Source: Octopus vulgaris
Lineage: Eukaryota
Reading direction: 5' to 3'
DNA length: 64,000 nt
Assembly (NCBI GenBank): GCA_951406725.2
Contig: OX597821.1
Location: 14,508,001-14,572,000 of the forward strand
Positions within the stretch are counted from its first letter, which is position 1, and each line of letters starts with the position of its first letter. This document shows positions 2,073-39,279 of the stretch, piece after piece. The notes under the pieces were generated by a model. The model was not told the DNA's origin and searched no databases. It saw only the letters and a list, made by a program, of their open reading frames with translations. The translations under genes were made by a program, and so were the position numbers.

Positions 2073-2500
2073 CTGCATACAAAAGACAAGGAGAACAAGT
2101 GTATAGTAATGAAAACAACATTTGCTTATACCAATCATTATTAGGATCTTTCTGGAGCAATCACAAGGTTGGTAGATGGAAGTAGATCATATGACTTATA
2201 AAAGTATAAAATATTATTCATTTCTTTGTAATTTTTTTCTTTTTTAATGCATGTAGCATTGATATCAATAAGGATTCTGTTAATGAATTAGTTATAGTAA
2301 TGATTTATATCATTGATACAAGGCCACAAATTTAAAATTAATTAGATTGACCTCACTCCACCAGTACATGACTGGTACGTAATCACTTCTCAATAGATAG
2401 AAGGTAGTCAGCTATGACAGGATTTTAAATATAAAATTAGAGCATGAAGATTTACATTATTTACATTCAACGGATATTTGTCCTCATCTTGTTTGTTGTT

Positions 2501-2546
2501 AACACAACGTTTCGGCTGATATACCCTCAAGCCTTCATCAGGTGTC
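2501..2546 (-). ncRNA. Minimal type I hammerhead ribozyme motif (best-preserved copy)
   Basis: GACAC-CUGAUGA-A-GGCU...AGCC-GAAAC-GUU-GUGUU: stem I GACAC/GUGUU, conserved core, stem II, palindromic ACGU stem III, GUU cleavage triplet. Confidence 0.7.
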
Positions 2547-2796
2547 TTGGGGAAATTTCAAACCTGGGTTCTCATTCCTAAGGTATTTTTCGATGTTGTT
2601 ATTATTATTATTATTATTGTTCAGGTCCCTGCATTGAATCAAACTCAGAATCTTGGGGTTAGTAGCCCACACTCTTAACTCCAAGATTCCAAACTCAATT
2701 CCAAGCAGTGACCTGAACAATAATAATAATAATAATAATAGCAACAACATCGAAAAATACCTTAGGAATGAGAACCCAGGTTCGAAATTTCCCCAA

Positions 2797-2842
2797 GACA
2801 CCTGATGAAGGCTGGAGAGTATATCAGCTGAAATGCTGTGTT
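2797..2842 (+). ncRNA. Hammerhead ribozyme motif, degenerate
   Basis: gacac-ctgatga-a-ggctg-gagagtatat-cagct-gaaa-tgct-gtgtt; stem III and cleavage triplet are altered. Confidence 0.5.
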
Positions 2843-3224
2843 ATCCACAAATAAGATGAGGACAGATATCTGTAGAATGTAAATAATGTAAATAATGCAC
2901 ATAATTCCTCATCTCTTAAATATAGAACTGTAGAGCATGAAGAGATGAAGCTAAAAACTACAAGGTTTGTAATCCAACATTTTGCTACCTTCTTAAATAA
3001 GGATTTCTTACATCGGTACATGGTTTAAATAGTGGAAGAGCTTAGTTGATTACATCAATTCATTTTGTTGGCCCCAGTGGGGATTAAACTCAAAGCAGAA
3101 GAGCAGCAAAAAAATTTTTAAAAACCAACAAAAAGAGGGAACAATTTTATATCTCACTCCCTTTAAAGCATATAAGTAAATCCTGAAATCTTTACAAATG
3201 CTAGGCATCACAGTTTCATGGCAA

Positions 3225-6610: not shown

Positions 6611-8247
6611 GGCATGGAATGGATGGCTTCACAGGAACTGATAAGGTCAGGGGATGCATCAGGTTCCATTGTCAGTTTTGGCTTGGTTTCTATAGCTGGA
6701 TGTTCTTCCTAATGCCAACCACATTTTATGTGGCACTAGCACCCACACCAATGCTTTTACATGGTACTTTGGTTTTAGGACACACACACACACACACACA
6801 TATATTAGCAGGCTTCCACACAGTTTTTACCACATTCATTCACTGACATTGGTCGGCTCAGAGCAATTTTAGAAAACACTTTCTCAGAGTGCCATGCAGT
6901 GGTACTAAACCAGAAAAAACATTATTGCAAAGCAAGCTGTTAAACCACAACTTTGGTTATGAACTTAAAAATTGTAATCTAGTAAGCTTTAAAAATAAAT
7001 TTGTTTATAGATCCATAAAAGTCTGGTGATGTCTCACTGCAAAATGAGGTCTGTACTATTTTTGCTGTTCTGATCACAATAATGATTGACTATCATTACT
7101 TAAGACAATTCTATACATGAAAATAATTATCAAATTAGCCAGGAATTAATCAAAGAACAAATGGCACAAACAATGAATTGGCTCCTAACATTAAAGTAAG
7201 CAAATGTTTTTACATCATTAGTAGATGAGTATCGTTAATGAATAGTAATTACAGATTAAATATGTCCGGAAATAGAAAGAATACCTTGTTGCAGGAAATT
7301 GGTTGAAATTAGAAATGCTTGCTTTTCAAGATACTCGGGTACTTTTATGCATCCAAAAATGTATGCATTGTCGAGTTAACGACTTGACTTATGGACCTGA
7401 TACATGTAAAATGATCTACTCATTTTTATAGTATAAACTACCAGTAAATACTATCAAGCAGATATGTACTTGTTGAATGATAAATGTGTTAACTTTGTCT
7501 CAGTATTTAAAAATCATGGTCAGTGCTACACTCTAGGCAAACCAAACAATTACCTAGGATGTTGAAATCTGAGGGCCTTGCACAAATTATGAACAGCATC
7601 GACAAAAATTCTTAATCAAACTAACAAAAAAAAAAAAAGCCAATTTTTGAAGAACATTGGAAGAGAAAATAAAAATAAAAATCTACCCCAAATATCTTTT
7701 TAACATTAACCTTAGTATCAAGGAAGAATTGAGGGAGTTGTTTCAGGAGTGTTTTAGTAGTAAAAGAATATTGAATTATTACCTACTGAAATATTATACA
7801 CTTGCTTTTGGCTGAGTTCACCAGAGAGTTACAACTTGGGGATGGATGGGTGGTGAGTATATACTGATTAAGACTGGCTTTGAGTGTTGAATACCCAAGT
7901 GTTGGCCATGATTGTAAGCATTTAGTTACAATGGCCAACCACTGAATCATAGCAGTTTACTGTTTGAAATCTTTTCCTGTTTGGTTCAGTTTATTTAGTT
8001 AAGCTACTAACTGACACATACTGGCAAAATAAATATCACATTTAAATCAGATATCAACAAGGATATAGCATATTCTTAGACTATAAATATAATAGTCAAA
8101 GATATAAATATAAGAAACAAACAGTTTCTATTGTAACAAACAGTCAAGTATGTTTTAGTTTTATGTCTTTTATTTAGTATTTAATTCTTCTTTTATAGTA
8201 TTTCTGCTGAAATTGTTTCAATCAATGTTGTAAAAAAAAAAATGAAG

Positions 8248-8666
8248 AGGCACAGGAGTGGCTGTGTGGTAAGTAGCTTGTTTACCAACCACATGGTTCC
8301 GGGTTCAGTCCCACTGCGTAGCACCTTGGGCAAGTGTCTTCTACTATAGCCTCGGGCCGACCAAAGCCTTGTGAGTGGATTTGGTAGACGGAAACTGAAA
8401 GAAGCCCGTCGTATATATGTATATATATATATGTGTGTGTGTGTGTGTTTGTGTGTCTGTGTTTGTTCCCTAGCATTGCTTGACAACCGATGCTGGTGTG
8501 TTTATGTCCCCGTTACTTAACGGTTCGGCAAAAGAGACCGATAGAATAAGTACTGGGCTTACAAAAAGAATAAGTCCCGGGGTTGAGTTGCTCGATTAAA
8601 GGCGGTGCTCCAGCATGGCCACAGTCAAATGACTGAAACAAGTAAAACGAGTAAAAAAATAGAGTA
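8248..8666 (+). mobile_element. SINE family A
   Basis: Full-length copy. Confidence 0.92.
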
Positions 8667-9026
8667 AATTATTAAAATTATTAAACTGATGTTTGAAATG
8701 TAACATAAAATTTTTATGACAGTCTTAATTTAGACCAGTTTGAAATAGACTCTTTGAATCATAGAATTAGGAGCAGTTCGAAGCTGCCTCTGATTCTATG
8801 ATACCACCATAGTATCAAAGAGGATTTATTAGTTCTATCAAAGCCAAAGTTTACACAATCAGGGCTTACAAGAACTTCCCAACTAATTATTCAGCTAACT
8901 AATTGTTACCAGCGTCTGTATTTGTAGTCTCAATTAATTAGGCTGTTATGGTTTCCAAAAGGATCTATAATGCCCTCCTAGAAGAGATGTTATAATCCAT
9001 GAAGCAGATAGTGATTTTAGATTTAA

Positions 9027-9421
9027 CTAGCAGTATCGCCCGGCATTGCTCGGGTTTGTAAGGGGAATAACTATATAAGCATTTTCAGAAATGTAAAATA
9101 TAATAGCCATCTCAATATGGCTAACCACAAAGCGGGGTGTTACTGTAGCTTTTTACGTTCTGAGATTTAATAATAAATTTTTAGAGAGTTACTTCCCTTA
9201 TATAATAGAAAAAAAATGCATTAAAAATGGGAAAAATTGATGGTAAATTTTTTTAAAAATCGTAGACTCATCGTAGACGCGTGCTAATACCCAGAAGGGC
9301 TCGATATGAATCACGACTATAAGATACCCGGTTTTGGTTACACTGCACTGCAAAATGTGGGAGTAGTTAGGAATCTAAATCGTAGGAGACAGACACACAA
9401 CTTCACTTTTATATATAAAGA
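9027..9421 (-). mobile_element. Non-autonomous Helitron
   Basis: Minus strand reads A|TC...hairpin cccgagcaatgccggg...CTAG|T; homologous copy at 40799-41186. Confidence 0.85.
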
Positions 9422-9879
9422 TTACAGCCATTATTTGTGCTAATAGTTTGACAGTATCATACTAAGTATCCAAATGTTTTCATTGTTCAGTAGTAAAAAA
9501 GGCTAGGAAACACTACTACTCCATTATAAAGAAACAAATGTAAGATAGATTAAATGTAAATAACAACATTGTAGGTTATTAAATTGCTGAATCAGAGTTT
9601 CTTCCCAGAAAGCTTCGGATATCTGCACATGTCTATGGAAGTTGGTGCATCCGTTAAGTTACTCTAAAGTTGAAAATAATTTTATACTTATTTGATGTTT
9701 TTGTTAATAAAGATGTTTTGAGTGATGGTTGATTGTGAGCATTATATGAGTGAGGAAAAAATAAAATGATAAAGATGTAAAAATTATACATTGCTTGATG
9801 CATAAACATATAGAATGATGTGCATAAACAAGCACATCTCTCTCTCTCTCTCCACACACACACACACACATATATATAT

Positions 9880-38764: not shown

Positions 38765-39250
38765 ACAGTTCTATATTTAAGAGATGAGGAATTATGTACA
38801 TTATTTATATTTGATTGATATTTGTCCTCATTTTGTTTGTTGATAACACAGCATTTCAGCTGATATACCCTCCAGCCTTCATCAGGTGTCTTGGGGAAAT
38901 TTTGAACCTGGGTTCACATTCCTAAGGTATTTTTTGATGTTGTTATTATTATTTCTAAGGTCACTGCCTGGAATTGAACTTGGAATCTTGGAGTTAGTAG
39001 TCCGGGCTCTTAACCACTGCGCCATATGCCCACGGACATATGGTGTAGTGGTTAAGAGCCTAGGCTACTAATCCCAAGATTCCAAGTTTGATTCCAGGCA
39101 GTGACCTTAGAAATAATAACAACATCTGAGAACCCAGGTTCAAAATTTCCCCAAGACACCTGATGAAAGCTAGAGGGTATATCAGCTGAAACGTGTTAAC
39201 AACAAACAAGATGGGGACAAATATCCGTCGAATATAAATAATGTAAATAA
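38765..39250. mobile_element. Palindromic tRNA-headed, hammerhead-containing element (family E), copy 2
   Basis: Head-to-head arms with a 2-nt spacer (39032-39033); 73-nt tRNA-like heads at 38959-39031 (minus) and 39034-39106 (plus); hammerhead motifs at 38845-38890 (minus) and 39155-39197 (plus). Confidence 0.85.
38959..39031 (-). pseudogene. tRNA-like SINE head (A box TGGCGCAGTGG, B box AGTTCAATTCC, loop CT-ACT-AA); not a functional tRNA
   Basis: 73 nt, cloverleaf-like but with acceptor, D and T-stem mismatches; embedded in repeat E. Confidence 0.7.
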
Positions 39251-39279
39251 TGTATATATATATATATATATATATATAA

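Follow-up and report, generated by a model that had tools for sequence, protein, structure and literature searches.

The hairpin at positions 2438 to 2943 of a 64,000-nucleotide stretch of the Octopus vulgaris genome (assembly GCA_951406725.2, contig OX597821.1, forward-strand positions 14,508,001 to 14,572,000; here called the window) is, with a probability of about 0.75, a 5'-truncated, two-armed insertion of the pseudo-long terminal repeat (pLTR) of a broken autonomous Penelope/Poseidon retroelement, whose tRNA-derived head is likely its internal RNA polymerase III (Pol III) promoter. A sequence-only reading had taken the hairpin for a separate, non-autonomous short interspersed element (SINE) mobilised by a Penelope reverse transcriptase (RT)/GIY-YIG enzyme. 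The enzyme assignment is supported by an RT/GIY-YIG open reading frame (ORF) found between pLTRs of the family; the SINE assignment is taken up further below.

The two-armed hairpin itself was confirmed as that reading had described it. Identical 13-mers at 2438-2450 and 2931-2943 form a perfect 13-bp target-site duplication (TSD), enclosing 172-nt inverted arms (2450-2621 and 2722-2893) with 91% complementarity and a further inverted pair (2594-2661 and 2676-2743). Folding of 2451-2930 gave -297 kcal/mol, compared with -95 ± 6 kcal/mol for 100 shuffles, and left the 3'-most 38 nt unpaired. These nucleotides correspond to the extension of about 35 nt noted earlier on one arm and represent the one-sided tail of a Penelope-like element (PLE). 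Since the arms begin at head positions 17 (left) and 35 (right), the A box is missing from both, and this copy is without a full head. The window holds two two-armed copies, and hammerhead boxes (CTGA-N-GA...GAAA) were confirmed in all four arms; the hammerhead consensus proposed from them equals the commonest letters over ~150 arms. In the hairpin at 2438-2943, the left-arm core is intact and the right-arm hammerhead is decayed by three substitutions (positions 11.1, 15.2, and 16.1). The individual features are as follows:

2438-2450, no strand: left TSD, 13 bp, identical to 2931-2943 (family TSD mode, 12 to 13 bp)
2450-2679, minus strand: left arm, a pLTR copy lacking the tail and spanning head position 17 to body position ~148 (probe alignment, locus W1)
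2617-2679, minus strand: tRNA-like head of the left arm, 5'-truncated, A box missing, B box mutated (alignment)
2598-2616, minus strand: (AAT)n spacer of the left arm (sequence)
2501-2546, minus strand: minimal type I hammerhead motif of the left arm, core intact (core match 2510-2541; features as described in PMC4209133)
between 2506 and 2505, minus strand: predicted cut of the left-arm hammerhead (motif)
2676-2679, no strand: head-to-head junction, 4 nt common to both arms (overlapping head alignments)
2676-2930, plus strand: right arm, a pLTR copy with tail, spanning head position 35 to the end of the tail (alignment)
2721-2745, plus strand: (AAT)n spacer of the right arm (sequence)
2768-2930, plus strand: homology to the Penelope ORF's 5' coding region, overlapping hammerhead and tail (open frame in natural copies; peptide of homologue P0008)
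2768-2770, plus strand: likely start codon ATG of the Penelope ORF homology
2797-2842, plus strand: hammerhead motif of the right arm, decayed, predicted inactive (sequence)
2893-2930, plus strand: PLE tail of ~38 nt, on one arm only, continuing into the ORF in full elements
2931-2943, no strand: right TSD, whose first 2 nt also match the continuation of the element
~38765-39258, no strand: another copy in head-to-head orientation, the left (minus) arm carrying the tail, with two almost complete heads and a TSD masked by (TA)n

The link between arm and autonomous element was found from both sides. Common DNA precedes the head in five single copies and encodes a GIY-YIG C-terminus. Among the best 30 genomic hits to this coding DNA, 29 are followed by head and/or body; in the remaining one, the head breaks off after its first letters and (AAT)n follows. 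The head starts ~30 nt after the ORF stop and the tail continues downstream into the ORF, so that the unit reads ORF (with DKG, RT with YVDD, and C-terminal GIY-YIG with CCHH), stop, ~30 nt, head, (AAT)n, hammerhead, tail, next ORF. An autonomous Penelope sharing hammerhead and tail was found: the pLTR-ORF-pLTR layout is present in L182, L220, L223, L226, and L236, and L238 is also listed with ORF-flanking pLTRs. Furthermore, in natural copies a frame beginning at a likely start ATG upstream of the hammerhead stays open across hammerhead and tail and into the ORF, and the N-terminal peptide encoded over the hammerhead recurs in homologue P0008. By this frame, the 3' half of the pLTR (hammerhead and tail) codes for the ORF N-terminus.

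All 21 ORF loci examined have a broken frame. The RT domain (PF00078) scored above the cutoff in two of six ORF fragments, and the Pfam GIY-YIG model gave no hit on the element's own endonuclease region. A homologue search returned 139 proteins, including an 836-amino-acid Anolis protein with 41% identity that also matches the N-terminus (E 5e-10) and the C-terminal endonuclease (E 1e-17); homologue P0029 is inferred from species and length to be PAc. RT and C-terminal GIY-YIG lie in one ORF with DKG, a CCHH within the endonuclease, and no CX2-5CxxC linker finger. DKG, CCHH, and an absent linker finger are given as Penelope/Poseidon criteria in PMC8557442, and together with YVDD they therefore assign the element to this group. 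That the element is real and belongs to Penelope/Poseidon is highly probable.

A Pfam GIY-YIG search of the genome recovered other PLE families, and none of the 50 loci checked was the ORF of the tRNA-headed element. The linker zinc finger that this element lacks is present in another family of the genome, a younger, Neptune-like one with intact 781-amino-acid frames (L037, L042, L110, and many hits of the GIY-YIG search), whose 3' region contains tandem repeats. The genome holds at least four more PLE families. A spliced intron was considered and rejected: no recurrent spliced form was present among 233 cores, and odd upstream DNA occurred in seven of them, different each time. The odd DNA upstream of L100 proved unique. 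Outside the genome, a phage BLAST search gave matches at E 2 to 8 only, two metagenome scans for homologue DNA found nothing, and a PDB search returned 0 hits.

Exact 24-mers were counted in the 2.8-Gb genome, in which the contig of the window was coded C8. The core word occurs 6,767 times, the tail word 5,846 times, and the head-start word 2,733 times; reversed 24-mers, used as controls, gave 0. Correction for decay yields an estimate of ~21,000 arms and ~15,000 tails, which is rough and probably low. Arms diverge from the column majority by 3.4% without CpG sites and by 4.7% overall, and half or more of the sampled family words were found in seven sequencing runs from five organisms. The main sample of 96 loci comprised 65 found with the core pattern on contig C1, 29 found by similarity to the tailed window arm, and the two window copies. 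It was complemented by 30 loci from across the genome and by 90 tail-ascertained loci; the C1 samples overlap in part.

Segmental duplication multiplied some copies together with their flanks (L162, L177, and L179 on C31; L136, L137, and L255-L257 on C1). Many copies are split by other (AAT)n-ending repeats within the (AAT)n spacer (L063, L112, L119, L132, L143, L147, and L264); retroelements that target microsatellites appear to use the spacer as an insertion site. In L339 and L379, a recurrent internal jump from head to body at a shared GTTAA deletes the hammerhead.

Tabulation of solo and inverted copies and of their TSDs showed 66 head-to-head loci out of 96, besides 29 single ones and 1 tail-to-tail; head-to-head orientation accounts for 42/65 pattern-found loci. 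Two-bodied dimers (n = 60) carry one tail in 57 cases, none in 3, and two in 0. Similarly, 19 of the 30 genome-wide loci are dimers, with one tail in 13/13 two-bodied ones, and 63/90 tail-ascertained loci have an inverted partner at most 300 nt away, the partner arm stopping before the tail in 59/61. A TSD of at least 8 bp was detected in 37/96 loci and in 36/84 tail-ascertained loci (90 minus 6 without enough flank), compared with 2.4% and 1.8% in mismatched flanks. TSD length is variable, mostly 10 to 15 bp (9 to 15 bp is also given), and a GC content of 26% indicates AT-rich targets. Breakpoints differ from insertion to insertion, and the palindrome is no fixed unit. The arrangement of arms, tails, and TSDs is the pattern of an inverted copy with a one-sided tail that PMC8557442 describes for PLEs. 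Long inverted repeats between direct repeats would also suit a terminal inverted repeat (TIR) DNA transposon or a miniature inverted-repeat transposable element (MITE); this origin is ruled out by the variable TSD, unequal ends, variable internal breakpoints, and direct link to an RT ORF. A fixed short TSD with matching termini was not found.

Both arms of a dimer come from one source and have been little homogenised later, because they agree at four subfamily sites (22/22, 22/24, 36/41, and 41/53) and share 13 derived letters (shuffled mean 4, maximum 10), yet diverge by 6.3% within dimers, compared with 6.6% between dimers. In the ORF-linked loci, the tail is on the short inverted arm in five cases and on the ORF-bearing arm in three. 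L186 and L187 have a long, ORF-bearing, tail-less arm opposite a short, tailed one, and in the window hairpin, too, the tail-less arm extends further 5' than the tailed arm. From this placement of tails and reach of tail-less arms, neither arm is a duplicate of its partner, unless deletions since then have concealed this. Two points weigh against this account of the arms: the fifth subfamily site (b73) shows no concordance between them, and their asymmetry could stem in part from later deletion in palindromes.

A single source with neither arm copying the other fits two reverse-transcription events, as described for PAc, where reverse transcription starts at two internal sites and on both target strands (PMC11167929). 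By analogy with PAc biochemistry, the element's protein would nick both target strands ~12 to 13 nt apart, and reverse transcription would be primed internally on the RNA at two places, namely at the end of the tail and ~30 to 40 nt upstream. Tailed and tail-less complementary DNAs (cDNAs) of the same source RNA would then be joined head to head to give a hairpin between TSDs; the pattern is seen in the loci, and the joining is what we infer from it. Alternatively, the first cDNA might fold on itself and be copied into the inverted arm. Such a snap-back is improbable; it would explain the source alleles shared by the arms and could use a small hairpin at the head start, but often neither arm contains the other (L186, L187, and five ORF-linked loci), and the tail-less window arm is the one that reaches further 5'.

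The natural head was aligned directly to 35 distinct genomic tRNAs, covering few isotypes, with 300 shuffles as the null. It scored 62.5 against the best genomic tRNA, and best scores of the shuffles averaged 29 and did not exceed 46.5, which supports the tRNA-derived head of the earlier reading. Closest in this set is tRNA-Arg. tRNA-Thr was also tried as the parent: its pattern found only 32 mutated copies, and within this set Arg outscores Thr. The A and B boxes of the head match the Pol III consensus and are intact, while the tRNA stems are broken. At L305, ~7 tRNA-Cys genes and pseudogenes are clustered within 3 kb.

Copies also end sharply at the head. Of the arms extending to the head start (n = 66), 58 stop 0 to 7 nt upstream of it, none stop at 8 to 25 nt, and the other 8 extend into ORF sequence; in 45 of the 58, no inverted head adjoins the end. 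Across the same boundary, exact 24-mers drop from 2,733 to 846, the latter count being for the ORF end, 17 to 41 nt before the head. Along the 2.3-kb ORF, no TTTT run is common to more than 2/15 copies (null mean 2.6 to 4.1, P 0.015 to 0.042); 12 stretches of other PLEs contain 1.7 to 9 TTTT per kb. Because of the tRNA-like head with its A and B boxes, the pile-up of 5' ends, and the lack of shared TTTT, a Pol III start at the head is favoured. Pol III transcription from the head is therefore likely on sequence grounds, and we lean slightly towards a start 0 to 7 nt before the head, driven by the two boxes.

Several observations speak against a Pol III promoter. ARAGORN called the head a tRNA in 0/51 loci, Rfam likewise in none, the boundary stop is weaker in the tail-ascertained sample (18/29 arms), and the T-run test amounts to one modest P value. 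Moreover, a 12-nt quasi-palindrome (positions -7 to +5) lies at the same boundary, and many dimers have it at their centre. Uncapped RNA from Pol III makes a poor mRNA, and a coding RNA of 2.6 kb is unusual for Pol III. The sharp 5' boundary could instead mark an RNA polymerase II (Pol II) start, as in the D. virilis Penelope, whose pLTR is described as having an internal promoter resembling that of long interspersed elements (LINEs) (PMC2377424). The quasi-palindrome, the length of the coding RNA, and the D. virilis promoter fit a conventional Poseidon element whose promoter is of the Pol II type. The tRNA-like piece would then be an old insertion without a role, and 5' ends would accumulate because reverse transcription stalls or joins at the palindrome before the head. 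We take this explanation seriously without expecting it to be correct: 45/58 arms end at 0 to -7 although their partner ends elsewhere, the boxes are intact and the tRNA stems broken, the ORF is free of shared TTTT runs, and junctions show no overall excess of microhomology (10/43 vs 21%).

The idea of a distinct tRNA-plus-hammerhead SINE borrowing a Penelope enzyme is quite improbable and, as a separate family, largely refuted. Short copies do outnumber ORF-linked ones (6,767 core vs 846 ORF-end 24-mers), and the lone copies L113 and L025 start at the head and have a TSD. However, the autonomous element has the entire arm, with its head, as its pLTR, contrary to what a non-autonomous SINE with a head absent from its partner would show, and the body is ORF-coding. 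No separate SINE lineage was seen, because ORF-linked and short copies share the same alleles at four diagnostic sites (P 0.12 to 0.31). Promoter and both priming sites would fit within ~280 nt, so that a lone pLTR with a full head could be recopied like a SINE. Within the Penelope/Poseidon reading, a bolder scenario is tentative and rather doubtful: an autonomous element would have captured the tRNA-derived promoter, Pol III would have transcribed the whole 2.6-kb unit, ORF included, every complete pLTR would also be a self-sufficient SINE-like retroposon, and the two-armed insertions would have seeded ~10,000 near-perfect RNA hairpins in the genome of an animal that edits its RNA heavily.

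The PLE-type minimal hammerhead motif recognised earlier is supported by core boxes and helices I to III as described in PMC4209133. In a set of 77 arms selected independently of the core, the boxes of the core occur in 37 and the full set of features (core boxes, helix I, helix II, and palindromic helix III) in 19; stems I and II form in the fold of a near-typical copy. Rfam, in three scans, called no hammerhead. Among the 100 of 163 stem II variants listed, 0 compensatory changes occur, a contrary point that is also expected of dead copies. This missing covariation in the stems is the one contrary sign named in the sequence-only reading that appeared. The sole common non-CpG variant in the core, at N7 (T109/A39), is a conservative Asp/Glu codon change and therefore no proof of ribozyme selection.

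Three unstranded RNA runs placed 6,720 to 9,816 reads on a 661-nt copy from ~6% of each run, with both strands equal. No pile-up of read ends was seen in them, a further contrary point, though such libraries would hardly show a cut. Seven of 33 tailed arms start at body positions 93 to 100, just after the predicted cut, compared with 1/18 partner arms; P is 0.002 for that window and 0.12 for any window, and the weak excess is confounded by a GTTAAC palindrome. The hammerhead is predicted to cut only as a same-sense dimer or with protein help and to be locked in duplex within a read-through hairpin transcript. An inverted dimer cannot supply the two same-sense hammerheads needed for dimer cleavage. 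RNA reads have more A>G/T>C places than the contig run, but since G>A/C>T is also raised, no editing claim is made. At L156:1480-2140, one ORF-end variant, seldom met in the contig run, accounts for a third to a half of the RNA reads at linked sites, which suggests one highly transcribed locus.

Elsewhere in the window, a minus-strand open stretch of 342 amino acids (2-1027) contains a BTB_2 domain (E 4.9e-31) and probably represents coding exon 1 of a voltage-gated potassium channel gene or of a related one. Upstream of this exon, ~1.4 kb away, is the hairpin.

If true, a SINE-type promoter in the terminal repeat of an autonomous retroelement would link SINEs and PLEs and reveal one route by which a SINE can emerge from its own partner. 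The family also offers large-sample genomic evidence on the open question of inverted copies and one-sided tails in PLEs: one tail per dimer, one source for both arms, and neither arm copying the other. It leaves ~10,000 ready-made hairpins (estimated from ~15,000 tails and ~70% inverted). Since octopus has been reported to combine unusually high double-stranded RNA potential with hyper-editing (PMC5625713), the hairpin family is a candidate source of ADAR substrates. Annotation pipelines are likely to mislabel it as SINE, MITE, or tRNA pseudogene.

In the literature consulted, neither a tRNA-derived head in a PLE pLTR nor the octopus family itself was found described; Repbase and Dfam lay outside this comparison, and the supplementary lists of PMC8557442 and PMC4209133 may include it. 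A tRNA-derived, likely Pol III head in an autonomous pLTR appears new, and PLEs are already known for the inverted form, the tail, the TSD, and the minimal hammerhead. Penelope/Poseidon elements such as D. virilis Penelope and Anolis PAc (PMC11167929) have the same single ORF with RT and C-terminal GIY-YIG, pLTRs, inverted 5'-truncated copy, 30- to 40-nt tail at one end, hammerhead over the ORF start, and AT-rich targets. The octopus pLTR differs by its tRNA-derived head with A and B boxes and its (AAT)n spacer, whereas Penelope is described with a TATA-less, LINE-like promoter and an intron (PMC2377424). Its hammerhead matches the minimal PLE hammerheads of Cervera and de la Pena (2014; PMC4209133) in the 5-bp helix I, the unpaired base between 9 and 10.1, G10.1-C11.1, and the palindromic 15.2-16.2 without loop 3, and differs from them in a helix II of 5 to 6 bp. 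For PLE hammerheads, the same study reports that monomers do not cleave and that dimer cleavage is low.

A tRNA-derived head like that of the octopus pLTR is also found in the octopus SINEs OK, OR1, and OR2, a likeness by description; identity with one of them is possible. These SINEs were reportedly described by Ohshima and Okada in 1994, with OR1 and OR2 said to be Arg-related. OR2 is listed as a CORE-SINE in PMC4758252, unlike the octopus pLTR. Schistosoma SM-alpha and Sj-alpha have the same succession of Pol III-type promoter and hammerhead but are non-coding, often tandem, and cleave in vitro (PMC6765202), whereas the octopus unit belongs to an autonomous element and is mostly inverted. 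Retrozymes without long terminal repeats (LTRs) share type I hammerheads in short animal repeats; they are described as head-to-tail tandems yielding circular RNAs (PMC7229834), whereas the octopus family is head-to-head and carries coding sequence. Finally, the TRIMp3 elements Cassandra, Helenus, and Ajax (Kojima 2024; PMC10886601) have the same small-RNA-derived Pol III promoter in a terminal repeat, proposed there to come from a SINE inserted in the repeat. TRIMp3 are non-autonomous LTR elements with primer-binding site, polypurine tract, and 4- to 5-bp TSDs, and their autonomous partners, it is argued in that paper, must use Pol II, whereas the octopus head sits in the autonomous element itself.
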